DNA from: Clostridia bacterium
GTDB lineage: Bacteria > Bacillota > Clostridia > Oscillospirales > CAG-272
Assembly (NCBI GenBank): GCA_017456985.1
Contig: JAFTIH010000031.1
Location: 64,421 to 128,420, forward strand
DNA: 64,000 nucleotides
Reading direction: 5' to 3'
Both the position numbers and the translations under genes were made by a program. This document shows, one piece after another, positions 3,893-14,701 of this stretch. The notes beneath the pieces were generated by a model. That model was given only the letters and a program-made list of their open reading frames with translations. It searched no databases and was not told the DNA's origin. Numbering within the stretch: position 1 is the first letter of the stretch; the number at the start of each line of letters is the position of its first letter.

Positions 3893-6472
3893 TTGATACA
3901 AGAAAAGGAGGTGCGTGCCGTGCATAAAAAATATGCCGAACAAAATACGGCACGAATGGAGAAGATCCTGAAAAGCTCCGCGCAAACGGGACTTACCGAG
4001 CAAGAAGCACAGCGCCGTCTTCAAAAAGACGGAAAAAACGCCGTTCTTGCGCCCTCTAAAAATGCCGTTGCATCGACCCTTGGCGGTGTATTAAAAAACG
4101 GAACGTTGCCGTTTTTCGCGCTCATCCTGCTTCTTTGTGCTTCCGCCTTGGGAAAAGACATCCTTTTGCCGCTCGGCATTTATCTGTTTTTCCTCGTCGC
4201 CTTCCTGCTTCTTTCGCACAGAAGACGGCAGTGGAGCCTTGCGCATCAGCGCGCGACACTGCCCTTGGTCAAGGTCTTACGCGAGGGAAAGCATCTGCAC
4301 CTTTCTCCCGAGGACCTCGCGGTGGGTGATCTTTTGGAGCTTGCCGCGGGTGACGTTCTTTATACCTACGCGCATATCCTTTCCGACGAGCCGATCACGG
4401 CGTTTTGCAAGAGAGAGGGGAAGGGGGAGCTCTTTTTAAAGCACGGTGGCGATTGCTTCGATGAAACGGACGAGCCCTTTAATTCCTTGCGCCCGGGTGA
4501 CGTCGTGCGCGAGGGGAGGGCGCGCGCCTTCGTGTATGCTCTTACCCCCACACCCGTTTCCCTCGAAAAGCCGCAGGCGCAAACGGTGGATAACCACGGA
4601 AAAATGTGCAGTCTTGCTTCCCGCATTTGCTTCGTTTTCGTCTTTTTGATGCTGGCTGTCGCCTTCCTGCGCGCCTGCCTTTCCTCGGATACTACCCTCC
4701 TTTGCGACACGCTTTTGCTGTCGGGATCCCTTCTTGCTACGGCAAGCGTAGTTTTTCACCCCGTGCTGTTTGACTTGCTCTTTTTTATACGGAATAAAAA
4801 GAACAAAGCGGAGCACGGCGGCTCCTTTGCCTCCGTTGCCGATGCGGAGCTTTTGACTGAGGCAGACAGCTTCGTGCTTTCCTCTCGTTCGATGTTCCGC
4901 TCTGCGCAATACGTTACGAAGCATTTTGAAACGGCAAGCGGCAAACGGATTTCCGATCAAAAGAGAACGACGGTCGAGCTTTCGCTCATTGCCGACGCAC
5001 TTTGTGCGACCGAGAAAAAATGCGAGCTTTCCTTGCGCGAGCAAGCACTTTACGGCTTCAGCGTAACGCGCACGACGGTTCGCTCTCTTACCCTTTACGC
5101 AAAAGCGACGACGGATGACTACACGCACGCCTCCTTCCACGGTACGGCTGACGGAAAGCCTGTTTCTCTCGTTTGGGGGAAGGCGGATGCGCTGATCTCA
5201 GAGCTCAGTTATTTCTCGGAGGACGGAAAAACAAGGCTTCTTGACGCAGGCTCCAAGCGCGATATGTTAGAGGGCGTCGAGCGGCTTTCGACCCACGGAT
5301 ACAGCGTTCTTGCGTTTGCGGAAACGCAGGTCAGAAATACGCCCGGCGGCATCGTGGCATCCTTTCCCGATTTGAAGCTCCTCGGCTTTTTTGCCCTTCG
5401 TAAGGCGTCGGACGAGCAGGCGGAGCGCACCCTTCTTTCCTTGAAGGAAGAGGGAAAAAAGGTCTTCTTTATTCACGACGGCGAGAGTGCGGATTGGCTC
5501 CGCCAGGAGATCCGTCTTCTTTCCGGCGTTCCCGTTTTGGACGGTAGAGCGGAATCCTTCCGCGACGAGCTTGGCTGTTTCGTATCGGACGAGGAGCTTT
5601 CCTTTGCGATCGGAACGCATCTGACCTCGTTACAGCGCGCGCAGGTCGTTCAGGCGCTTGAGGGTCGCGGATATCGCGTTGTCGCTTATGGAGAGAGCTT
5701 TGAAGATCACCGTATGATGTGCGCGGCAACTGCAGCGATGGCACCGCTCAAAAAGAAAGAGAACGCCGCGCCCATCGTTATGCGCAAGGCGTCGTTACAC
5801 TGTGAGGAGCATATTTCCGCCCAAGTGGATTCTGTGCAAAGCGCGTCCAAAATGCTTGGTGGCTTTGGCGTCTTAACGGCGTTCCTTTGTGCTTCCTTGC
5901 TCGGCAGAAGCGTGCTGGCGTTCCTCGGCGTATGCTTCGGGGTCGGCCTTCTTCCCGTCGCGTATTATATGATAGCGGGAATCGTGTTCGATCTTTTGGC
6001 GTTTTGGTGCTATGCCAATTCCTCACCCAAGGAGAATTACGGCGGTTGGAAAACGCTTTTACACGAAAATATCGAGAACGCCAGCCTGTTCGTGGGCTTG
6101 GTGTTCGGCTCCCTCGTTACGGGAATCCTTGCCGTAGTGATGCAAATGAACGCTTCGCACTTTGCCTTTGACTTGGAAGCATTCGTGCTTTTCAGCCTGC
6201 TTTTACTGATGAACGTCGGAATGTGGCGCTTTTCCTCCGCCCGTCATTCGGCAAGCACGCTGTTGTTCCCGTTCGTTTCCGTTTCGCTTTTGTCCCTTGC
6301 CTTCCTTGCTCACCTGTGGAGCGGGGGCGTGTTTGGATTTTCCATGCGGCCCGAGATGTTTTTCTGGGCGCTCTTTCCTACCGCCGCTCTGCTCGCGACG
6401 GGAATTGGTACACAAGCATATTTAAACTATAAAAATAAAGACCATCAAAGTGATGAAAAGGAGAAGTTATGA
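3893..6472 (+). CDS. P-type ATPase homologue with degenerate catalytic motifs (probable pseudo-enzyme); likely true start is GTG 3920, behind AGGAGG at 3906-3911
   Basis: It has a cation-ATPase N-terminus (GLTEQEAQRRLQKDGKNAV), an A-domain-like LAVGDLLELAAGDVLYTYAHIL and about 10 TM segments. No DKTGT is present (the aligned position reads SFVLSSRSMF). There is no TGES, and GDGxND is replaced by GESFED. Confidence 0.6.
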   Translation: MIQEKEVRAVHKKYAEQNTARMEKILKSSAQTGLTEQEAQRRLQKDGKNAVLAPSKNAVASTLGGVLKNGTLPFFALILLLCASALGKDILLPLGIYLFFLVAFLLLSHRRRQWSLAHQRATLPLVKVLREGKHLHLSPEDLAVGDLLELAAGDVLYTYAHILSDEPITAFCKREGKGELFLKHGGDCFDETDEPFNSLRPGDVVREGRARAFVYALTPTPVSLEKPQAQTVDNHGKMCSLASRICFVFVFLMLAVAFLRACLSSDTTLLCDTLLLSGSLLATASVVFHPVLFDLLFFIRNKKNKAEHGGSFASVADAELLTEADSFVLSSRSMFRSAQYVTKHFETASGKRISDQKRTTVELSLIADALCATEKKCELSLREQALYGFSVTRTTVRSLTLYAKATTDDYTHASFHGTADGKPVSLVWGKADALISELSYFSEDGKTRLLDAGSKRDMLEGVERLSTHGYSVLAFAETQVRNTPGGIVASFPDLKLLGFFALRKASDEQAERTLLSLKEEGKKVFFIHDGESADWLRQEIRLLSGVPVLDGRAESFRDELGCFVSDEELSFAIGTHLTSLQRAQVVQALEGRGYRVVAYGESFEDHRMMCAATAAMAPLKKKENAAPIVMRKASLHCEEHISAQVDSVQSASKMLGGFGVLTAFLCASLLGRSVLAFLGVCFGVGLLPVAYYMIAGIVFDLLAFWCYANSSPKENYGGWKTLLHENIENASLFVGLVFGSLVTGILAVVMQMNASHFAFDLEAFVLFSLLLLMNVGMWRFSSARHSASTLLFPFVSVSLLSLAFLAHLWSGGVFGFSMRPEMFFWALFPTAALLATGIGTQAYLNYKNKDHQSDEKEKL

Positions 6473-7308
6473 GCGAATGTAATCATGATTGTAGCACTTG
6501 CAAGAGCAAGTGCGGGGAAGCGGGAGCTGCCGCAAACCCCTTCTACGTTGCCCCCAACGCCCTCAGTAGCGTCAAGCACGTGATCGGTGTCGTCAGCGGA
6601 AAGGGCGGCGTCGGTAAGTCCATCGTTACCTCGATGCTTGCGGTTGCAATGCAAAGAGCAGGGTACAAGTGTGCCATTTTGGATGCGGATATTACGGGTC
6701 CCTCCATTCCGCGCGCCTTTGGTCTGCGCGACGTGGAGATCACGGGCACCGAGGACGGTATGATTCCCCCCACCTCCAAAACGGGCATTGAAATTATGTC
6801 CTTGAACCTTCTCGTGGATGACGAGGCGAAGCCCGTCGTTTGGCGCGGTCCCGTGATCGCGGGAACGGTCAAGCAGTTCTGGAGCGACGTCATCTGGAAC
6901 GACGTGGACTATATGTTCGTGGATATGCCTCCCGGAACGGGTGACGTTCCCCTGACCGTTTTTCAGTCCCTGCCCCTTGACGGCATCGTGATCGTCGGAA
7001 GCCCGCAGGAGCTCGTTTCGATGATCGTGGAAAAGGCGGTCAATATGGCTAAGCTGATGAACGTCCGCATCCTCGGTCTTGTCGAGAATATGAGCTATTT
7101 TGTTTGCCCCGATTGCGGAAAGAAGATCTCCGTTTACGGCGAAAGCGGCATCGACCGTCTTGCCGAGGAGCACCAGCTTCCCGTGATCGAAAAGATCCCG
7201 ATCGATCCCCGCCTTGCCCATATGTGCGATACGGGTACCATCGAGCTGATGCAGGACACCTATATGCAAAACGCTGTGAAAGCCCTTTGTGAGCTTGAAG
7301 GCAAATAA
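6469..7308 (+). CDS. mrp: Mrp/NBP35 (ApbC) family Fe-S cluster carrier ATPase
   Basis: It has the deviant Walker A VVSGKGGVGKS, a CPDCG motif and an N-terminal Cys cluster CNHDCSTCKSKC. An ATGA start/stop overlap links it to the upstream gene. Confidence 0.85.
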   Translation: MSECNHDCSTCKSKCGEAGAAANPFYVAPNALSSVKHVIGVVSGKGGVGKSIVTSMLAVAMQRAGYKCAILDADITGPSIPRAFGLRDVEITGTEDGMIPPTSKTGIEIMSLNLLVDDEAKPVVWRGPVIAGTVKQFWSDVIWNDVDYMFVDMPPGTGDVPLTVFQSLPLDGIVIVGSPQELVSMIVEKAVNMAKLMNVRILGLVENMSYFVCPDCGKKISVYGESGIDRLAEEHQLPVIEKIPIDPRLAHMCDTGTIELMQDTYMQNAVKALCELEGK

Positions 7309-7315
7309 AAAAGAA

Positions 7316-7342
7316 GCGCCCCTCGTCGATGACGAGGGGCGC
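7316..7342. terminator. Bidirectional rho-independent terminator between convergent genes
   Basis: A 12-bp GC-rich stem (gcgcccctcgtc gat gacgaggggcgc) is flanked by an A-run upstream and a T-rich tract downstream. Confidence 0.75.
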
Positions 7343-7358
7343 TTGCGTTTGGTTTGTT

Positions 7359-8309
7359 TTATTGGATATATCGCTCCGTGATATCGAGAAGCCCCTCAAA
7401 GTGGGGAAGCACACAATCCTTGTTTTCAAAGATTTCGGATTGATATACGAATTTTAGATCGAAATTTTTGTCGAGCTGCTCAATGTTAAAATAGACAGCA
7501 TTCTCATGGTTTTCAATTAATCCACTAACGACCGTAATTCGTCGGAAAAATTCAACGTCGACCAAAACGGCCTCGATTTGTCCGACAAAAGAAGGAAGCG
7601 GGGTGCTTTCTATCAAGGAGCGCTTAATTTCGTAAAGCTCCTTTTGTGTTCCAAGGGTATCTTTTCTTGTTCTTAAAGCAAAGAAAAAGAGACCAAAGAT
7701 TGTTGGAAGCTCCAAAAAACACAAAAGCGAAAAATACGTCCAATCCCGATTGGTAAAGTCAGAAAATTCCTTGGATTCTCCTATAAAAGATACGGCTATA
7801 ATGATCCAAAGAAAAGCGAGTGCGATCATGCAAAAGATTAAAATAAGGTTTTTGTTCAGGGTATTCTTGCGCTCGTTTGCCTTGGCTAGAGTGTCTTCCG
7901 TAACGGGACGGGGAGAAAAGGGAAGCTGTTGCTTGATATAGGCGCTGATCTGATAAGGATTCTTTAATCCCATAATATTGTATTTCTTGTCATTGAAAAC
8001 AATGTACAAGGCGTCTACCTGTGCCATCGTGAAGACTACGTCCGAAAGATTCTTCTCGATTTGCCTGAAAAAGCCAAATCTGCCGATGATCTTACCGTTT
8101 TGCACTGTCAAAAACGCTTTAAAATTGTAGAGAAGCGGAATGACACCAAAAGCGCAAATAATTGCAAGCACGGTATATAGAACAGCGATGTCAGCGTCAC
8201 CGAGCTTTCCTTGGGTGAACATATAGAGAAACAATACGGCAAACAAACAAGTTAAAATAAAGAAAACAAAGAATAAGATGTAATGTGTCTTTTTGAAAAC
8301 TGCGGCCAA
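7359..8309 (-). CDS. Hypothetical 4-TM membrane protein (two TM hairpins, each followed by a soluble domain; the first resembles a bacterial PH-like domain); TTG start
   Basis: This is the only long ORF in a strongly AT-rich stretch. RBS TAGGAGGA lies 8 nt upstream of the TTG. Hydrophobic pairs are HYILFFVFFILTCLFAVLFLYMF/IAVLYTVLAIICAFGVIPLLY and LILIFCMIALAFLWIIIAVSFIG/WTYFSLLCFLELPTIFGLFFFAL. Confidence 0.6.
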   Translation of the reverse strand: MAAVFKKTHYILFFVFFILTCLFAVLFLYMFTQGKLGDADIAVLYTVLAIICAFGVIPLLYNFKAFLTVQNGKIIGRFGFFRQIEKNLSDVVFTMAQVDALYIVFNDKKYNIMGLKNPYQISAYIKQQLPFSPRPVTEDTLAKANERKNTLNKNLILIFCMIALAFLWIIIAVSFIGESKEFSDFTNRDWTYFSLLCFLELPTIFGLFFFALRTRKDTLGTQKELYEIKRSLIESTPLPSFVGQIEAVLVDVEFFRRITVVSGLIENHENAVYFNIEQLDKNFDLKFVYQSEIFENKDCVLPHFEGLLDITERYIQ

Positions 8310-8345
8310 TCTATTTTCCTCCTAACGGCAACTTGACTTTATTTC

Positions 8346-8374
8346 ATTATAGCATAACCAATTTAAAAAGTAAA
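8346..8374 (-). promoter_or_regulatory. Putative sigma-A promoter for the 7359..8309 gene (TTTACT-17-TGcTATAAT)
   Basis: The reverse complement reads tttact ttttaaattggttatgc tataat, with an extended -10 TG. Confidence 0.45.
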
Positions 8375-8388
8375 GAGGTTGTATGTAT

Positions 8389-8413
8389 ATGAAAGCTACA
8401 GGAATTGTCAGAA
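8389..8413 (+). repeat. Left copy of a perfect 25-bp direct repeat, atgaaagctacaggaattgtcagaa
   Basis: Checked base by base against 13012..13036. Confidence 0.9.
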
Positions 8414-8436
8414 AAAACACAGGGGGACAATTTTGA
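8389..8436 (+). pseudogene. 15-codon stub identical to the 5' end of spoVT (MKATGIVR then KNTGGQF-stop)
   Basis: The first 25 nt are identical to 13012..13036, the start of the intact spoVT. Similarity ends abruptly after codon 8. Confidence 0.55.
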
Positions 8437-8476
8437 GAAAAATTTGACAAAAACCAGTATTTTTTCCTATACATAG

Positions 8477-8502
8477 AAAAAGCGAGGTGAAATTCACCTC
8501 GC
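8477..8502 (-). terminator. Rho-independent terminator of the minus-strand AraC-to-ASRT operon
   Basis: The stem is gcgaggtga aat tcacctcgc. On the minus strand it is followed by TTTTT, 14 nt after the stop of the 8516..8884 gene. Confidence 0.7.
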
Positions 8503-8515
8503 TTTATTATAAAAT

Positions 8516-8884
8516 TTAGAACGAGTAGCCCTCGACGCTGTAATACGCCATATTGGACTGTCTGACGTCAAGCCTACCGAAGCAAGCGCAGATGGGAAGA
8601 TCACTTTTTACCCATACCGTGTATTGAACGGACTCGCCAAGCTTGAAGCCTTGCTTGCCCATCGGCTGATCAAGGCGGATGCAGGTCGTTCTCATGCCGT
8701 CAAGCATAACTTGGATATTTCCTACCGGGTCTTTGTCTTCAAAAATGAAGGTAAGCTCAATGTGTGCGGTCTTTTTGCCAAGGTTGGTCAGCATCAGCGC
8801 CTCGTGTCCCTCAAAATCAGGATTATCGCCGTGAGGGGGAAGATAGCCGTCGCAGAACACCCAGTTTCTTTTTCCTTTTTGCAT
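8516..8884 (-). CDS. ASRT-family (Anabaena sensory rhodopsin transducer-like) small beta-sandwich protein
   Basis: WVFCDGYLPPHGDNPDFEGHEALMLTN..IELTFIFEDKDPVG..RLDVRQSNMAYYSVEGYS parallels the ASRT pattern I recall (AEGYIPPYG..HETVCILN..ITIYYSDKEPVG..RLDSRQ). Confidence 0.6.
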   Translation of the reverse strand: MQKGKRNWVFCDGYLPPHGDNPDFEGHEALMLTNLGKKTAHIELTFIFEDKDPVGNIQVMLDGMRTTCIRLDQPMGKQGFKLGESVQYTVWVKSDLPICACFGRLDVRQSNMAYYSVEGYSF

Positions 8885-8904
8885 TTTCGTGTCACTCCTT
8901 ATCC

Positions 8905-10101
8905 TTACAAGCCGAAAATTTTAGGAAGTGCCTTGTCGTTGTAGGTCGTCATTCTCTTGGCACCGTCCTTGCCGATCAGGTAGCAATCCTCAATGCGGAA
9001 GGAGCCCCATTCCATCCCCTTAAAGTACGCATCGATGCAGATCGCCATATTTTCCTCGATCACGCGCTTGTTAGCGACGGTAAACGTGGGTGCCTCGCAC
9101 TCCAGCATACCCGTGCTGTGAAGGCTGCCGTAGGGGCAATAGTCGATATAGCCGTACTTGGTAAGATAGTCGGTGTATGCGTTCAAGACAACGTCGCAGG
9201 GCGTGCCGGGCACCATTTTTGCCGAAGCGTAGTTCAGTGCTTCGTATGCGCATTTGACGGCATCCTTGATCTTCTCGGGGATTTTGCCGAGAACGAGGGG
9301 ACTGCAAATAATACCGTTGTAGCCCTCGTAGCAAACGCCTGCCGCAAGGTTGATGATCTCGCTTTCCTTGATTTGACGCATTGTATTTCTGCACATACTG
9401 ATGTAGGAGTTCTCGGGACCCGTAGCGACCATAGGAGCAAAGGACTGCACGTAGCTCTCGGCACCCAGACGCATCATTTCCGCCTCGAACATACCCTCGA
9501 TATGACGCTCGGTCATACCCACCTCGATCCCCGGAACGACGTTCGTGAACATTTCGCTCACCATTGCCCAGTTGGTTTTCAAGCATTCGATCTCGGCAGG
9601 GCTCTTGATGATTCTTTGCTCGTAGTGTACGTCGTCAAAATCTACGATCTCAGCGTCAGCGAAAACCTTTCTTAACTTACTCATAATGATAGCGGGGAAG
9701 ATCAGTCTGCCGATAAATGCTACCCGCTTTACGGTAGGAGAGGTTGCCTTCACCTCGCGGAACAGCTCTTCAAAGTCAAGCTGCCCCTCCGTATTGTATT
9801 CAAAACCGCTGACCTCACCGATCTCGGGCAAAATCGCAATTCTGCTGTTTGGCAGAGCATTTTGCACAAGGCAGTAATCGTAGGACGCCTGACCGCTGCA
9901 AACGATGACCTCGCCCTCGGCGGGGATGATAATGGCAGAGCTCTCGTTCACGGGAGCAAAGCCGCAATAGTAACGTACGATACCGATCTCAAGGAGGTTA
10001 GAGAAGCCGACGAGAACGTCAATTCCTCTTTGTGCCATTTCCTTGCGGATCGCATCGACTCTTGCTTGATATTCCTTGCCTTCGATTTTAGGGTAATTCA
10101 T
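8905..10101 (-). CDS. M24-family metallopeptidase fold protein (Xaa-Pro peptidase/creatinase-like); start taken at ATG 10101 behind AAGGAG
   Basis: It has a creatinase-type N-domain plus a pita-bread C-domain (SPAEIECLK..ERHIEG..FAPMVATGPENS..INLAAGVCYEGYNG..HSTGMLECEAP..IEDCYLIGKDG). Confidence 0.7.
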   Translation of the reverse strand: MNYPKIEGKEYQARVDAIRKEMAQRGIDVLVGFSNLLEIGIVRYYCGFAPVNESSAIIIPAEGEVIVCSGQASYDYCLVQNALPNSRIAILPEIGEVSGFEYNTEGQLDFEELFREVKATSPTVKRVAFIGRLIFPAIIMSKLRKVFADAEIVDFDDVHYEQRIIKSPAEIECLKTNWAMVSEMFTNVVPGIEVGMTERHIEGMFEAEMMRLGAESYVQSFAPMVATGPENSYISMCRNTMRQIKESEIINLAAGVCYEGYNGIICSPLVLGKIPEKIKDAVKCAYEALNYASAKMVPGTPCDVVLNAYTDYLTKYGYIDYCPYGSLHSTGMLECEAPTFTVANKRVIEENMAICIDAYFKGMEWGSFRIEDCYLIGKDGAKRMTTYNDKALPKIFGL

Positions 10102-10117
10102 TTTCGTTATCTCCTTT

Positions 10118-11125
10118 TTAATCAATAAACCGTTTTACGTTTTCGGTGAGAATGCCTTGATATGTTTCTTCGCTGATGCCGTTTTCAAGCGCCATCGCCT
10201 TGACCCCGCGAAGAATATGGGCGTATCCAAGCCCGCCAAAGGTGCGGAGCATGCCTTTCAGACAAATGTCGTTGCAAAGAAGAATTTTATCGCCGTAGCC
10301 CTCGTCAATCAGCATTTTTAAGACTTTTACACGCTCAAGGTCGTACGCAAATCTTCGTTTCTCGGAAACGTAAAACTCCTTTCCGAAATTGTCGAATTCA
10401 ACGTAAACACCCGCGTCAAGAAGCTTGCGAATATAGTCGGGACGGAGCCAAACGTCGACGTGATCGATGCAGATCCTTTCGGGGCGCATCCCCTCGCTCG
10501 TCAGAATTTTGATGATCTCGATGCCGTTTTCCGTGTATAGATCCGTATGCACATGAACGGCTTTGTCCGTCTCTGCACTCACGATGCCTGCGGCATGGAG
10601 AACCTTTTTTTCATTCTCGCTGACGACGGCGCTCGTGCCGATCTCGCCAATGATGCCCGCACGGACATCTGTGCCCTTGATACCGACAAGCAGATCTTGA
10701 CGCATTTCGTCGGCTAACTCTGTAACTGTGGCATCCTTTAAGTAGGGAAAGTGCGATCTTTCATAATAGTGACCGCATCCTGCCACGATATTTATCCCTG
10801 TTTTTTGCGATAACGCTTTGAGTGCGGCAGGGTCCCTTCCAATTTCATCCGGCGTGCAGTCAATGATGCTTTCCCCGCCGTGCTCCTTAAAATAGGCAAG
10901 CTCTTTGCACGCGTCCTCAAAGCTGTCGATGCGGGCGTTATCAAGCACTGCGTAAGGATCAAGGGCAACGTCAGCCCGCGAGAGAATGGAAAAGGGGTCA
11001 TAAAAACTTTGTGGCTCGGTTCCCGTCACCTCTACGCATCCCCGCATATCGATAAAGATATGCTCGTGCGATGCGGTAACACCGAGCGCGGAGGAATCGA
11101 TCTCGCCAAGTACCGTTGTGATCAT
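10118..11125 (-). CDS. Phosphotriesterase-family (PTER/Php-like) amidohydrolase-fold protein
   Basis: The N-terminus is GVTASHEHIFIDMRG (HxH metal motif). It has a TIM-barrel length of 335 aa, with VHVHTD and IDHVD motifs. Confidence 0.7.
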   Translation of the reverse strand: MITTVLGEIDSSALGVTASHEHIFIDMRGCVEVTGTEPQSFYDPFSILSRADVALDPYAVLDNARIDSFEDACKELAYFKEHGGESIIDCTPDEIGRDPAALKALSQKTGINIVAGCGHYYERSHFPYLKDATVTELADEMRQDLLVGIKGTDVRAGIIGEIGTSAVVSENEKKVLHAAGIVSAETDKAVHVHTDLYTENGIEIIKILTSEGMRPERICIDHVDVWLRPDYIRKLLDAGVYVEFDNFGKEFYVSEKRRFAYDLERVKVLKMLIDEGYGDKILLCNDICLKGMLRTFGGLGYAHILRGVKAMALENGISEETYQGILTENVKRFID

Positions 11126-11149
11126 ACGCCTCTCCTTTTGTAAAGTTTA

Positions 11150-11932
11150 TTATAGAACGGTATCGTCGCCGTATTTCTCTATATAGTCTTTTAGGATTTT
11201 GTTGGTCGGCAGGTCCGCATCCCCGACCGTGCTTGAGCAGAAGATCACGCCGTCAAGGGCGCCACTCTTTACCATGGCAAAGTAGCGCGAGAGCTGATCC
11301 TCGAACAAACGAGCGTCCATCGGGCAGTTGTGCTTTCCGTCGTAGTCCCAAAGATAGATGCCGCCCATCAGCTTTTTGCCCTCGGCAAGCGATACGATCT
11401 TCGGCAGATATTCGTCCATTTTTGCAATGTTCTCGCATTCCCAGATCCAGAACGTCACGCCGTCAAAGCATTTAAGATAGGGGCGTAGATCAAGGTCGAG
11501 CTGATGATCATAAAGCACGCACCAAAAATCAAGACCCTTTTCGTTCAGTGCCGTCTTGATCTTTTTTAAGACCTCCGGGGGAAAGCGCTTCATTCGCTCG
11601 GGGGAGAAAAAGTCATCCACCACGCCGCCCGTAACGTTTTGGGTGCTATTGAGGATGGCAAGAATATCCTCCGTATTTCCAAGCTCGGCATCGGGAAGGG
11701 GAGTGCTTGCGTCACCGAGCACCGACCACTTGATCTCGGAGAGGGAAGAAAGCCGCCCTGCCATCGCATCAAAGGGCGGTTTGATGTTTCCACCGTAGGA
11801 AACGACGAAGGCGTTGGGGATCCCGTATTCCTTCGCGAAGTCCTCGGGCGTCATATGGCAGCATAAGCCCGTGCATTCGTTGTGCGAGCCTTCAAGATGT
11901 CCCCAATTCCAAAGCTTGTCCTTTAGCTTCAT
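11150..11932 (-). CDS. Hypothetical protein (260 aa), family not recognised; start at ATG 11932, overlapping the AraC stop (ATGA)
   Basis: The ORF track frame is trimmed to MKLKDKLWNWGHLEGSHNE.., where ATG overlaps the TGA of the upstream regulator. The codon-aligned shadow ORFs on the plus strand fit coding on the minus strand. Confidence 0.55.
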   Translation of the reverse strand: MKLKDKLWNWGHLEGSHNECTGLCCHMTPEDFAKEYGIPNAFVVSYGGNIKPPFDAMAGRLSSLSEIKWSVLGDASTPLPDAELGNTEDILAILNSTQNVTGGVVDDFFSPERMKRFPPEVLKKIKTALNEKGLDFWCVLYDHQLDLDLRPYLKCFDGVTFWIWECENIAKMDEYLPKIVSLAEGKKLMGGIYLWDYDGKHNCPMDARLFEDQLSRYFAMVKSGALDGVIFCSSTVGDADLPTNKILKDYIEKYGDDTVL

Positions 11933-12795
11933 AAGTGTTTCTCCTTTTTGTAAGCGGTAGGAGTCGTTCCCACCTGTTTTTTGAACAGTGAACAAAAATA
12001 TTTTAGTTCGGAAAAGGCAAGCCGAGCGGCAATTTCCGTCACAGGCAGATCCGTTTCCCGTAAAAGCCGCTTTGCTTCCTCGATCTTCATACGGTTAAAG
12101 CAACCGATGAGTGTTTCGCCCGTTTGCTCCTTAAAGGTCTTGCATAGAAAAGAACGGGAATAGTTGACCCGATCGCAAATTTCGTCCAGCGAGAGCTTCG
12201 AGGATAAGTTTTCCTCAAAATACCCAATGACGATCCCGACAAGATCACGGTAAAACGCCTCGTCGCTGAGAATGACGAGCTCCGAGTCCTTTTTTCCCGA
12301 CAGGTGCCGCATCAAGGCGATCAAAAGATAGGAAAGCTGGGAGAGAATTACCTGCTGACCGCCGAAATTCGGATGTTCGATTATCTCCAAAAGATCCTTT
12401 GCATTCATGCGGAAGGTGTGTTGGCTTTCGTCAATTATGACCTTCATGCACGATGCTTGCGTAGCGTCGAGAGAGAATTTCTTGTCCGCAAGGGAACGTA
12501 GCGCCGACGAGGGGCTTTCAAAGCAGATCACGAACGCGCGCGAGCGGTTGCCGTATGGCGAGTGATAAGAATGTGTTTCGTTCGGGGCGATAAGGATCAA
12601 CTCGTTTTCATAGATGACAGATTCCTCATCGTCGATCGAAACGCTGACGTCGCCCTTTTCTACGTAGCATAGCTCATAGAAGGGGTGCCGTTCTTTATAA
12701 TTTTGGTAGCGTCCTTCAAAATCAAGATACTCAAGCGCGCTCAGCTCCTTTATATCAATGACGTTGACGATGCGATGCCTTAAATACGTTTTCAT
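11929..12795 (-). CDS. AraC-family transcriptional regulator (cupin-like sensor plus 2xHTH)
   Basis: The C-terminus LSLDEICDRVNYSRSFLCKTFKEQTGETLIGCFNRMKIEEAKRLLRETDLPVTEIAARLAFSELKYFCSLFKKQVGTTPTAYKK is a classic AraC HTH pair. Confidence 0.85.
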   Translation of the reverse strand: MKTYLRHRIVNVIDIKELSALEYLDFEGRYQNYKERHPFYELCYVEKGDVSVSIDDEESVIYENELILIAPNETHSYHSPYGNRSRAFVICFESPSSALRSLADKKFSLDATQASCMKVIIDESQHTFRMNAKDLLEIIEHPNFGGQQVILSQLSYLLIALMRHLSGKKDSELVILSDEAFYRDLVGIVIGYFEENLSSKLSLDEICDRVNYSRSFLCKTFKEQTGETLIGCFNRMKIEEAKRLLRETDLPVTEIAARLAFSELKYFCSLFKKQVGTTPTAYKKEKHL

Positions 12796-12818
12796 CGGAT
12801 CCTCTCCTTCCTTGTTTT

Positions 12819-12847
12819 ATTATACAGCATTACTTTCGTATTGTAAA
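12819..12847 (-). promoter_or_regulatory. Putative sigma-A promoter of the AraC operon (TTTACA-17-TATAAT)
   Basis: The reverse complement reads tttaca atacgaaagtaatgctg tataat, followed by AAGGAAGGAG and ATG. Confidence 0.5.
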
Positions 12848-13011
12848 TCTATTATTTTCTAAAATATACCAAAATTTTCTTCAAAAAAATATTTGTGTTA
12901 TATTTTCGTGCAAAATGCGAAGCCTCCCTCGTGGAAAGTCAAGAGTATAATTTTCTTTAAACGACAAATACTAGAAATACAAATCTGTAAATCAAGGAGA
13001 TTTTTATATAG

Positions 13012-13036
13012 ATGAAAGCTACAGGAATTGTCAGAA
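13012..13036 (+). repeat. Right copy of the 25-bp direct repeat (the first 25 nt of spoVT)
   Basis: Identical to 8389..8413. Confidence 0.9.
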
Positions 13037-13566
13037 GAATTGACGACCTCGGACGCGTCGTCATTCCCAAAGAGATCAGAAGAACGATGCGCATCCGCGA
13101 GGGCGATCCTCTTGAAATATATACGGACCGAGAGGGAGAGGTGATCTTTAAAAAATATTCCCCCATCGGAGAGCTTGCGGGGTTCGCGACCGAATACGCC
13201 GAAACACTTCATAAGATCTGCGGAATTTCCGTTTTGATCTTTGATCGCGATGCCGTGATCGCGGTGGCGGGCGTTCCCAAACGGGAATACCTCGATAAAA
13301 AGATGTCGGAGGAGCTTGAGGCGATCGTCGAGCGCAGACAGCTTTACGTGCGTCGCACACGCGAGGAGCGGATCGAGCTGACGGACGGGGGAAGCGCGCA
13401 CGTGCTGAACTGTGGGATGCCTATCATTACGGAAGGGGACGTCGTGGGGTGCGTTTGCTCCGTGACGGTACCTGATGGGGAGGAGGGAGGCGGTCTTTCG
13501 CCCGATTCCGAAGCCAAGCTTATTCAAACGGCGGCCGGCTTTTTAAGCAAGCAAATGGAAAGCTGA
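13012..13566 (+). CDS. spoVT: Stage V sporulation protein T (AbrB-family swapped-hairpin N-domain plus GAF-like C-domain)
   Basis: MKATGIVRRIDDLGRVVIPKEIRRTMRIREGDPLEIYTDREGEVIFKKYSPIGEL and the C-terminal TAAGFLSKQME closely follow B. subtilis SpoVT as I recall it. Confidence 0.9.
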   Translation: MKATGIVRRIDDLGRVVIPKEIRRTMRIREGDPLEIYTDREGEVIFKKYSPIGELAGFATEYAETLHKICGISVLIFDRDAVIAVAGVPKREYLDKKMSEELEAIVERRQLYVRRTREERIELTDGGSAHVLNCGMPIITEGDVVGCVCSVTVPDGEEGGGLSPDSEAKLIQTAAGFLSKQMES

Positions 13567-14404: not shown

Positions 14405-14701
14405 ATGAATAAACTCAACAAAGAAACCACGCATAAGCTCTTCCGTGCGATCTTATCGCTCGAAACGGTCGAGGAATGCGAAAAGTTTTTTGACGATGCT
14501 TTTACCATTCAGGAGCTTGAGGCGATCGCCCAGCGATTTGACGTGGCTTGCCGCTTGGAAGAGGGGAAGAGCTACGTAGAGATCAATCGCGAAACGGGCG
14601 CAAGCACGGCTACCATCTGCCGTGTCAGCAAGTGCCTTAACTATGGAGACGGCGGCTACCGTATTGCGATCAAGCGCACGGCAAAGGAGACGGAGCAGTG
14701 A
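14405..14701 (+). CDS. yerC: YerC/YecD-family TrpR-like DNA-binding protein, first gene of the his operon
   Basis: LFRAILSLETVEECEKFFDDAFTIQELEAIAQRFDVACRLEEGKSYVEINRETGASTATICRVSKCLNYG matches the YerC/YecD pattern. A GTGA overlap links it to hisZ. Confidence 0.8.
   Translation: MNKLNKETTHKLFRAILSLETVEECEKFFDDAFTIQELEAIAQRFDVACRLEEGKSYVEINRETGASTATICRVSKCLNYGDGGYRIAIKRTAKETEQ

Follow-up and report, generated by a model that had tools for sequence, protein, structure and literature searches.

A truncated start of spoVT ahead of the intact gene as a probable remnant of serine recombinase integration in a Clostridia genome

In a Clostridia bacterium, the first 25 nt of spoVT occur twice in direct orientation, once in the intact gene and once as a stub 4.6 kb ahead of it. 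We propose, with a probability of roughly two in three, that the left copy is the eroded attL remnant of an element which was integrated at the 5′ end of spoVT by a large serine recombinase (LSR). The repeat lies in a 64,000-nt stretch of contig JAFTIH010000031.1 (here called the window), and was first pointed out in a reading of the sequence alone, which saw in it either a duplicated att core or the trace of a recombination that captured a cassette. The first alternative derives the left copy from site-specific integration at the start of spoVT. This part gains support from the adjoining module, which forms part of attL in other genomes, although the junction itself is missing from the window. 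The identification of the 25-mer as the att core does not hold, for reasons given below. The window retains, at most, a remnant that has lost its recombinase.

The 25-mer ATGAAAGCTACAGGAATTGTCAGAA is found as an exact match on the plus strand at 8389-8413 and 13012-13036. No comparable repeat was obtained in 100 shuffles, and the whole 1.8-Mb assembly contains only these two copies, in agreement with the perfect 25-bp direct repeat originally described. The right copy constitutes the first 25 nt of an intact spoVT gene (13012..13566, plus strand), which encodes a 184-aa protein with MazE_antitoxin and SpoVT_C domains. The left copy lies upstream of this gene in the same orientation, matches it at 25/25 nt, and opens the 15-codon ORF MKATGIVRKNTGGQF, the stub recognised earlier. 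Synonymous choices within these 25 nt (GCT, GTC, AGA) are the species' own, relatives differing at 1–6 of the 25 positions. Identity falls off on both sides of the repeat (89% over a 38-nt extension), and perfect agreement with the resident gene sits directly beside diverged bases, a contrast that weighs somewhat against the proposal.

The two copies are set in different surroundings. Upstream of the right copy, a promoter and leader (12945..13011, plus strand; GTATAA at 12945-12950, 17-nt spacer, ATACTA at 12968-12973, RBS AAGGAG at 12994-12999) align with the conserved spoVT upstream region of five other genomes (G045, G133, G120, G182 and G016); by resemblance, the promoter may be of forespore type (sigma F/G-like). 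It does lie inside the bracketed segment, as the sequence-only reading had it, but because promoter and leader are those conserved in the genus, nothing marks them as foreign. The left copy has no spoVT promoter, and adjoins that of a membrane-protein gene on the opposite strand. The RBS-like AAAGAGG ascribed to it is present at 8372-8378, but overlaps the −35 box of this strong minus-strand promoter (TTTACT-17-TG-TATAAT, 8374-8346; 10/12 matches in a promoter scan, extended −10).

Comparison with the closest species, G047 and G045, reveals an empty site. In both, the order is ATPase-Mrp-spoVT-MntP-TrpR-HisZ (loci L052 and L054), with Mrp directly preceding spoVT at a spacing of 158 nt and 107 nt, respectively, and a single copy of the spoVT 5′ end; neither of these operon-less relatives carries the second copy. 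The DNA between Mrp and spoVT in the window is consequently accessory. On its left it is flanked by the conserved Mrp/NUBPL-type P-loop ATPase gene (6469..7308, plus strand; PF10609, E=1.9e-90). Strains 98.3–98.5% identical retain the same structure as the window. The bracketed segment had been considered accessory, and so it is, but the extra DNA amounts to ~5.7 kb and takes in a gene outside the repeats. This gene (7359..8309, minus strand) encodes a 316-aa membrane protein that matched nothing in a Pfam search, has a low GC content of about 0.39, and is separated from Mrp by a bidirectional hairpin terminator serving both strands (7314..7344; 14-bp stem in a terminator scan). A homologue adjoins spoVT in G016, where ATTATAGCATAA from the promoter is also kept ahead of it. 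In G026 (locus L091) a homologue is cassette cargo; its 3′ end carries a hairpin of the module type, and beyond its 5′ end lies a promoter of the spoVT type. The gene in the window, too, is probably cargo that came with an earlier cassette of this kind, although neither a stub nor a module can be recognised on its left side.

Between the repeats lies a five-gene operon on the minus strand (8516..12795), delineated by Pfam and by gene calls on metagenome contigs. It encodes an AraC regulator (12795-11929), an unknown protein of 260 or 281 aa (11932/11995-11150), a phosphotriesterase-family (PTE) protein (11125-10118), an M24/creatinase-like peptidase (10125-8905) and an ASRT-family protein (8884-8516). 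The same unit is present in other Clostridia MAGs, at 50–86% amino acid identity and away from spoVT. The ASRT gene ends just past a hairpin, GCGAGGTGAAATTCACCTCGC (8479-8505, plus-strand coordinates), which a terminator scan identifies as the intrinsic terminator of the operon. It was thought to be the operon's own. The hairpin does terminate the operon, but it is an element of a module associated with spoVT and not of the operon itself; 19 loci carrying homologous operons elsewhere lack this module.

The module is conserved well beyond this species. It is about 180 nt long, and comprises the palindrome GTTATAATA, a small hairpin and a distal segment ending in the hairpin described above. We found it in 36 of 251 sampled genomes of the order, representing 24 genera, and in at least 16 families it follows a spoVT stub that ends at nt 32-37. 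In about 20 of the 30 loci fetched, a stub with the translation MKATGIVRRIE... precedes the module by about 100 nt. Six of those loci have an intact spoVT 0.8–1.6 kb beyond the module, and in all five inspected the cargo is one opposite-strand gene that ends at the hairpin, the layout seen in the window. An array of four stubs is present in G037, one cassette of which is also an AraC-regulated operon. An insert followed by a rebuilt or intact spoVT 5′ end, the arrangement singled out in the sequence-only reading, is therefore widespread among the gut Clostridia loci compared.

The distal part of the module is retained in the window at 8431..8508 (plus strand; nhmmer, E=7.2e-15 against the window and 2e-13 against the genome, at a single site), and is 83–97% identical to that of copies from other families. 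A distal-module profile from which the window had been left out matches 8441-8505 (E=8.7e-16), again as the genome's only site. With an HMM of the full module, two colinear matches are obtained, 8378-8411 (model positions 15-48, E=6e-4) and 8431-8508, with about 71 positions absent between them. Alignment and HMM place the joint of this deletion at 8412..8430 (plus strand), where 19 nt replace the corresponding positions of long-form copies, namely spoVT nt 26-37, the core GACGA, the palindrome and the first hairpin. About 52 nt of module, including the junction, have been deleted. In keeping with this, a profile of the junction and palindrome finds no match in the window; the core and the P′ palindrome are both absent. 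Homology of the left copy to spoVT accordingly stops at nt 25 and not at the crossover typical of the family, and we regard the copy (spoVT nt 1-25) as the truncated B half of an attL-type stub, as indicated by identity and HMM. Because the window lacks the core and palindrome junction, the attL assignment rests on the flanking 78 nt, in which the hairpin lies downstream of the stub with opposite-strand cargo ending there, and on the stub itself.

How such stubs arise is suggested by genomes in which elements occupy spoVT. In G035, G517, G439 and G503, attL reads ..ATAGACGAT|TAGGTTATAATAGG..AAACACTGG.., and attR reads ACTTGACATAATGG|GACGACC.., with spoVT resuming from codon 11/12. The elements of G439 and G517 contain three tandem LSR genes (Resolvase, Recombinase and Zn_ribbon_recom domains), which end about 155 nt before attR. 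Homology to spoVT within this family (class 2) reaches nt 32-37, and the shared core GACGA corresponds to nt 31-35 (13042-13046 in the intact gene of the window). The core thus lies outside the 25-mer, which makes the 25-mer a truncated attL remnant rather than an att core. A second LSR class (class 1) cuts spoVT at codons 31–33; its stubs are found in G004, G007, G001, G010 and G031, and in G014 the LSR is fused in frame to spoVT. The class-1 core, GGCGATCC in the window, lies at about 13102-13109. Core positions were deduced from the attL/attR pairs of G035, G439, G517 and G014. With two classes of LSR cutting the gene, the 5′ end of spoVT is a general LSR hot spot. The gene is truly split in G014, G035 and G517; in G439, a class-2 element landed in a class-1 stub and left spoVT intact. 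One caveat concerns the autonomous elements of G517, G439 and G035, which share the proximal module with the cassette copies, then diverge, and have no distal hairpin segment. Since the window retains the distal segment, its link to the LSR runs via cassette copies that carry both parts.

Counterparts of the recombinase end were sought closer to home. Neither the window nor the rest of its genome contains an attR or an LSR at the other end, such as is present in G439 and G517. The earlier statement that no integrase or recombinase lies between or beside the repeats is upheld by gene calls, Pfam and a genome search; across the genome (93.6% complete), searches with PF07508 and PF00239 returned zero matches, with no LSR gene or fragment, and the one match to PF00589 is on another contig. 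A donor element carrying the five-gene operon was looked for, and none was found.

In the scenario we prefer, an LSR-bearing element would have integrated into spoVT at GACGA, within codons 11–12, thereby forming attL. Its left end would be the ~180-nt module, with the adjoining cargo reading toward the hairpin and terminating there. What survives in this lineage would be the AraC-regulated operon together with the stub and a portion of the module, the recombinase end having gone, with an intact spoVT and its normal promoter now following the cargo. Later, a single deletion removed the ~52 nt of the scar, and the stub's promoter was lost as well, so that only the RBS-like sequence and 25 nt remain. 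The 316-aa gene would have been delivered earlier. The operon itself presumably came as cargo of the element. The intact spoVT may have been regenerated when a circle bearing its promoter and 5′ end was inserted by a single crossover, or else by repair with an intact allele as template. Lacking a core, a partner site and a recombinase, the scar is now inert. Its persistence is explained by the hairpin, at which the operon terminates; in addition, a 25-bp repeat probably offers too little length for homologous loop-out to be efficient.

It is also conceivable, if unlikely, that the whole block (stub, module, operon, and spoVT promoter with 5′ end) was imported ready-made, by homologous or homology-facilitated recombination or by a single-crossover circle with about 100 nt of spoVT homology. 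The scar would then have been made elsewhere, with no LSR acting in this lineage; import and local integration differ only in where the recombinase step took place. The hairpin segment is 97–100% identical across families, which implies horizontal spread, and the G037 and G036 cassettes agree exactly in sequence ahead of the spoVT −35 box, which implies that promoter-bearing ends travel too. A search of 37 genomes of the genus found the distal module only in this one, and the genome's lack of an LSR is likewise as import would have it. However, the species-specific synonymous choices in the 25 nt fit a stub made from the resident gene, and no donor with the operon beside spoVT was found.

The literal version of the original proposal, in which one integration of exactly 4.6 kb duplicated a 25-bp att core and supplied the spoVT promoter and 5′ end, is disfavoured and, in our judgement, improbable. 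It would account for the perfect repeat, the fairly abrupt loss of identity and the accessory content between the copies, but not for a family core beyond the 25-mer, the internal deletion relative to the module, the extra gene outside the bracket, a genus-conserved promoter at the right copy where the left has none, or the missing integrase. Least probable of all is that the left copy is retained as a small peptide, a small RNA or regulatory site at the start of spoVT, or a decoy landing site: an RBS-like sequence and ATG are kept in all stubs, even those without a promoter, long-form modules have the layout of a small-RNA gene (extended −10 box TGTTATAAT, terminator about 125 nt downstream), the G439 insertion into a stub spared spoVT, and the region has a stronger fold than its shuffled versions (z=−4.3), but the window has lost both the TGTTATAAT box and the recombination core and so retains neither a putative RNA promoter nor a decoy site, stub peptides vary in length and sequence, no Rfam family reached threshold, and the folding signal comes mostly from the terminator hairpin.

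Elements that interrupt sporulation genes by means of LSRs are known, namely skin in sigK (SpoIVCA), SPβ in spsM (SprA/SprB) and gin in gerE (PMC5025042, PMC5499854, PMC5595907). As in those systems, a specific codon of a sporulation gene is targeted here, and in G014, G035 and G517 spoVT is interrupted, the recombinase gene lying at that end of the element which adjoins it. In the window, by contrast, spoVT is whole, and all that is left of the element is a scar with its cargo; nor do skin, SPβ and gin offer a counterpart to the repeated arrays of stub, cargo and intact gene. An intervening element like skin was rejected for the window, where spoVT has its promoter and no interrupted frame, as was one with its own recombinase, there being none between or beside the repeats. 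In Bacillus, spoVT belongs to the forespore (sigma G) genes; excision restricted to the mother cell, as in skin, could not rescue it. Our literature search turned up no publication that connects spoVT with an attB or an intervening element.

Integron and CALIN arrays likewise assemble small accessory cassettes at one fixed platform, and an integrase is often lacking in the vicinity. The spoVT cassettes differ in having their own promoters and regulators, in running opposite to the platform gene, and in repeating that gene's own start, with no intI and no attC-type sites recognised. Searches with PF00589 gave no match on the array contigs of G037, G036, G230 and G026, nor near the window, and this origin was rejected, the repeated unit being a spoVT stub plus module and not attC. 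A transposon target-site duplication was rejected too; there are no terminal inverted repeats and no transposase gene, and the left copy falls within a module conserved elsewhere.

Phage 21 and e14 at icd, and SXT/R391 at prfC, insert into a gene end and bring along a replacement. There too, a conserved gene remains functional, with a dead copy of its end alongside. Those elements, however, rely on tyrosine integrases, and their replacement end is contained in attP, whereas the autonomous elements of G439, G517 and G035 bring none and disrupt spoVT, and the scar in the window is further truncated. Serine recombinases normally duplicate only the 2-bp crossover, so a duplication of roughly 100–170 nt, covering promoter and 5′ codons, needs an extra step. 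Integrative elements, and derivatives of them without recombinases, are known to accrete in tandem at a single gene end, as do the CIMEs with ICESt1/ICESt3 at the 3′ end of fda and the islands stacked at tRNA and tmRNA genes. Repeated use of an attB in this manner yields direct repeats of the gene end that part recombinase-less accessory blocks, much as in the four-stub array of G037. At spoVT the target is instead the 5′ end of a protein-coding gene, promoter included, and there the element family has left accessory genes stacked ahead of an intact spoVT in many gut Clostridia.

The duplicated spoVT start in the window is a decayed member of a cassette pattern centered on that gene's 5′ end, a finding that explains both the five-gene accessory operon between Mrp and spoVT and the spoVT-start fragment adjoining it. 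The 25-mer ATGAAAGCTACAGGAATTGTCAGAA lies on the plus strand at 8389-8413 and again at 13012-13036. These are its only copies in the whole 1.8-Mb assembly (49 contigs, 93.6% complete), and no shuffle of the window reproduced the repeat, so the exact duplication described in the sequence-only reading stands. The right copy begins the intact spoVT gene (plus strand), whose 184-aa product has MazE_antitoxin and SpoVT_C domains; the left copy opens a 15-codon plus-strand ORF, a stub. Between them, on the minus strand, lies an operon encoding an AraC regulator, a 260/281-aa protein without assigned function, a phosphotriesterase-family protein, an M24/creatinase-like peptidase and an ASRT-family protein, with a hairpin terminator at its end (8479-8505). 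Left of this bracketed segment are a Mrp/NUBPL ATPase gene and a minus-strand gene for a 316-aa membrane protein (7359-8309; GC ~0.39, no Pfam match). The strong minus-strand promoter of the latter, TTTACT-17-TG-TATAAT (8374-8346), lies in the bases upstream of the left copy and overlaps what had earlier been taken for that copy's ribosome-binding site. A separate 25-nt direct repeat, AGGAGCTTGAGGCGATCGTCGAGCG, relates 13310-13334 in spoVT to 14511-14535 in the TrpR-like gene at 92% identity; the coding sequence is GC-rich, and the similarity may be due to chance.

The empty site that the sequence-only reading had proposed to look for is provided by G047 and G045, the nearest species of the genome collection (SpoVT 80% and Mrp 85-86% identical). 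Their gene order is ATPase-Mrp-spoVT-MntP-TrpR-HisZ, with a Mrp-spoVT gap of 158 nt and 107 nt, respectively, and one spoVT start each, which means that the window carries ~5.7 kb of extra DNA. The two 25-mers are not the limits of this DNA, as had been supposed, since the 316-aa gene is extra too and lies outside the bracket. Upstream of Mrp, the window encodes an 859-aa protein (3893-6472) whose sole match on record is a weak one to Cation_ATPase_N; its identity to the G047 and G045 counterparts is 46-48%, next to 85-86% for the adjoining Mrp, and it may be a fast-evolving or degenerate relative of P-type ATPases. Upstream of the right copy, 70 nt can be aligned with the region preceding spoVT that is conserved in five relatives (G045, G133, G120, G182, G016); they read GTATAA, 17 nt, ATACTA, then ..AAATCTGTAAATCAAGGAGATTTTTATATAG, then ATG. 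The left copy lacks this promoter and leader (GTATAA-17-ATACTA). Because the 25 nt carry the host species' own synonymous choices, with relatives differing at 1-6 positions, the codon usage fits a stub made from the resident spoVT gene. The region upstream of spoVT is variable even between close species. For example, G133 equals G047 and G045 in closeness to the window species by SpoVT identity; in place of Mrp, genes for an MFS transporter and a 169-aa membrane protein lie upstream of its spoVT (locus L053, G133:C32, 1-2476), together with a weak module-type hairpin match at 1516-1558. Within the species, identical Mrp or SpoVT is encoded on five metagenome contigs from at least three samples. 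All five have the full arrangement, two of them with 98.3-98.5% identity to the window over 7300-13100, and none is a strain-level empty site, excision or deletion variant; the structure is thus fixed in the sampled population.

When 8310-8515 was used as a DNA query, strong matches (83-97%) to 8425-8505 were obtained in other families of the order, always beside spoVT. In the genome G037, four same-orientation stubs precede spoVT and related sequence follows each; further copies were found in G036, G230 and G026. In these copies, spoVT homology extends to nt 32-37 and is followed by a palindrome, GTGTTATAATAACAC, then a small hairpin around ATAAACACTGG, then a distal hairpin segment, ..TTTTGA.AAAAACAGCATATTTTGACCTATACATAGCAAAAGCGAGGTGAATTTCACCTCGCTTTT. 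We refer to this conserved ~180-nt sequence as the module, and to the stubs before it as class 2. A distal-segment profile, built with the window left out, matched 8441-8505 (E=8.7e-16) as its sole site in the genome. A full-module HMM built from 13 long-form copies matched in two colinear pieces, 8378-8411 (model positions 15-48, E=6e-4) and 8431-8508 (positions 120-203, E=7e-15), between which ~71 model positions are replaced by 19 nt, and the junction/palindrome profile had zero matches in the window. From these three results, we infer that the left copy is a module copy with a ~52-nt internal deletion that removed spoVT nt 26-37 and the palindrome; the diagnostic class-2 junction is among the deleted sequence. 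The module was not found at 19 loci of other MAGs carrying homologues of the window operon, indicating that the hairpin belongs to the spoVT-associated module and not to the operon. IMG/VR viral contigs held no exact match to the hairpin. In long-form modules (e.g. at loci L096, 1409-1590, and L099, 1408-1585), an extended -10 box, TGTTATAAT, precedes the hairpin terminator by ~125 nt, and there is an internal hairpin whose stem varies by paired substitutions (AAACCC/GGGTTT vs AAAAAC/GTTTTT). Small RNA genes are laid out in this way; the module matched no known RNA family in Rfam at the family's gathering score.

Class-2 junctions in other genomes connect the module to large serine recombinases (LSRs). 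In G035, spoVT is split between contigs. The left contig carries the stub and proximal module, ..ATTGACGAT|TAAGTTATAATAGG..AAACACTGG.., and ends shortly after; close to the start of the right contig, spoVT resumes at codon 12 in ..TCTTGACATAATGG|GATGATTTGGG... The bin yielded no overlapping contigs with which to complete the element. The right junction, ACTTGACATAATGGGACGACCT, also occurs in G439, G517 and G503, with matching left junctions at contig ends in the same genomes, and in G439 and G517 three tandem LSR genes (Resolvase, Recombinase, Zn_ribbon_recom) end ~155 nt before it. The bases common to attL and attR are GACGA (spoVT nt 31-35, codons 11-12), giving a reconstructed class-2 attP of ..ACTTGACATAATGG-GACGA-TTAGGTTATAATAGG... 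The 25-mer, earlier proposed as the att core, spans nt 1-25 and is therefore not the core. The proximal module is shared by the autonomous elements seen, whereas the distal hairpin segment kept by the window is not, so the link from the window to the LSRs runs via cassette copies having both parts.

We put a probability of about two in three on the reading that the left 25-mer is the remnant attL of a class-2 serine-recombinase element, with the AraC operon as cargo and the recombinase end lost. An element of this class would have inserted at the spoVT start, producing attL; the operon would be the cargo adjoining its left end; and the recombinase end would since have been lost. The spoVT gene is intact behind its normal promoter. 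A serine recombinase does not by itself duplicate a promoter and first codons. Plausible routes to an intact gene after a retained attL are repair from an intact allele and insertion, by a single crossover, of a circle that brought in the promoter and start of spoVT. The scar now has no core, no partner site and no enzyme; it is expected to be inert, in agreement with the three strains sampled. As the sequence-only reading had stated, no recombinase lies between or beside the repeats. The genome as a whole has zero serine recombinase matches and one tyrosine match, on another contig (C3:13865-14392), an unusually small set of site-specific recombinases. The structure in the window is an inert scar, neither an active excisable element nor, as the sequence-only reading further suggested, an insertion that rebuilds the spoVT 5′ end.

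A SpoVT search of relatives also revealed extra N-terminal SpoVT stubs in several species of the genus. In six genomes (G004, G007, G001, G010, G014, G031), the stub ends at codon 33 (..REGDP) and is followed by a conserved ~55 nt, TATAACATTGACA..ATACATAG; we term these stubs, cut at codons 31-33, class 1. In G014, the C-terminal part of an LSR (Recombinase and Zn_ribbon_recom) is joined in frame to spoVT at these GDP codons. This 542-aa open frame (locus L036, G014:C1, 3-1631) continues into spoVT from codon ~31 with no stop, and the recombinase would, in the integrated state, be fused to the C-terminal 150 SpoVT residues; no intact spoVT was found in the G014 genome (88% complete). The reconstructed class-1 attP has an inverted repeat, GTGTCAATGTTATCAGT / ACTGACAACATTGACAC, around GGCGACCCG. 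In G004 and G007, a stub with full promoter is followed by a small cargo gene, then a second promoter and intact spoVT. We considered whether 8446-8480 in the window (TTGACA..ATACATAG) might be an eroded class-1 (codon-33) P′ arm. A six-arm profile gave no match at E<100, so the left copy has no class-1 arm, and the resemblance is to the distal segment of the class-2 module. A Xer/dif-like interpretation of the junction palindrome yielded no convincing match by eye, and LSR genes were then found at attR. A repeat intrinsic to the operon is ruled out, since direct repeats around the homologous operons elsewhere (L059, L062, L063, L073) amount to one weak 19-nt AT-rich pair.

Of 251 genomes sampled from the order, 36 have the distal segment, at 1-6 copies each; they represent 24 of 139 genera and no fewer than 16 families. 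It is frequently found at contig ends, and its hairpin is 97-100% identical between families. At ~20 of the 30 loci fetched, a stub reading MKATGIVRRIE[AE][RC]VII.. precedes it by ~100 nt, and in six of these stub loci intact spoVT follows 0.8-1.6 kb beyond. In all five loci inspected, the cargo is one gene on the opposite strand, ending at the hairpin, which is also the layout of the window operon; the genes themselves are unrelated. G037 has four cargo sets, with genes for MocA (oxidoreductase), EamA (transporter) and AraC (regulator); for an Abi_2 protein; for DUF4190 and GH30 (glycosidase) proteins; and for DeoR (regulator), Fe-ADH and HAD (hydrolase). The G037 cassettes are all free of recombinase genes, and the array contigs of G037, G036, G230 and G026 have zero tyrosine or serine recombinase matches. 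In the four-stub array of G037 (locus L088, G037:C22, 3496-14940), the promoter remnant shrinks with distance from spoVT. A cassette of G026 carries one relative of the 316-aa gene as cargo, with a module-type hairpin at that gene's 3′ end and a spoVT-type promoter beyond its 5′ end, and another relative directly adjoins spoVT in G016; because of these placements, the 316-aa gene of the window is probably an older cassette. No donor of the window operon was found in genome and metagenome collections, where the best matches have 68-70% aa identity and none is next to spoVT.

Stubs may have a role of their own. In G439, a class-2 element with three tandem LSR genes (locus L143, G439:C76, 2620-9800) sits inside a class-1 spoVT stub, not the gene. 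Its right junction leads into spoVT codons 12-33, a class-1 arm and an Abi-like cargo gene, with intact spoVT 2 kb on (start 9739). Stubs can thus serve as landing sites, and leftover stubs may be decoys, this being the one decoy-type insertion seen. A broader proposal, which we advance tentatively and consider rather unlikely, is that the spoVT start is a dedicated gene-capture platform in gut/rumen Clostridia of the order. At least two classes of serine-recombinase element would insert, at codons 11-12 and 31-33; each round would leave a stub and cargo before a regenerated spoVT, building arrays of up to four cassettes, and stubs with a working attB would act as decoys that absorb later insertions and spare the essential forespore regulator. 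The window would then hold an old, disarmed cassette.

More generally, the spoVT 5′ end is a hot spot for serine-recombinase elements in many families of uncultured gut Clostridia, a pattern that is apparently undescribed. It gathers recombinase-free accessory cassettes, including operons for sugar and amino-acid catabolism, Abi-like genes and glycosidases. With the stub plus hairpin module as a simple marker, accessory genes that vary between strains can be located in metagenomes, and natural attB/attP pairs with their recombinases become available for a group without genetic tools. Full-text literature searches returned nothing tying spoVT to an attB or an intervening element. The pattern in the window is close to one in which integrative elements and their recombinase-less derivatives accrete in tandem at a single gene end. 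To our knowledge, the intervening elements described so far interrupt genes of the mother cell, from which they can be excised at no cost to the germ line; spoVT, in contrast to those host genes, is expressed in the forespore. Among described systems, those that come nearest are the intervening elements of sporulation genes that use a serine recombinase, namely skin (in sigK), SPbeta (in spsM) and gin (in gerE) (PMC5025042, PMC5499854, PMC5595907).
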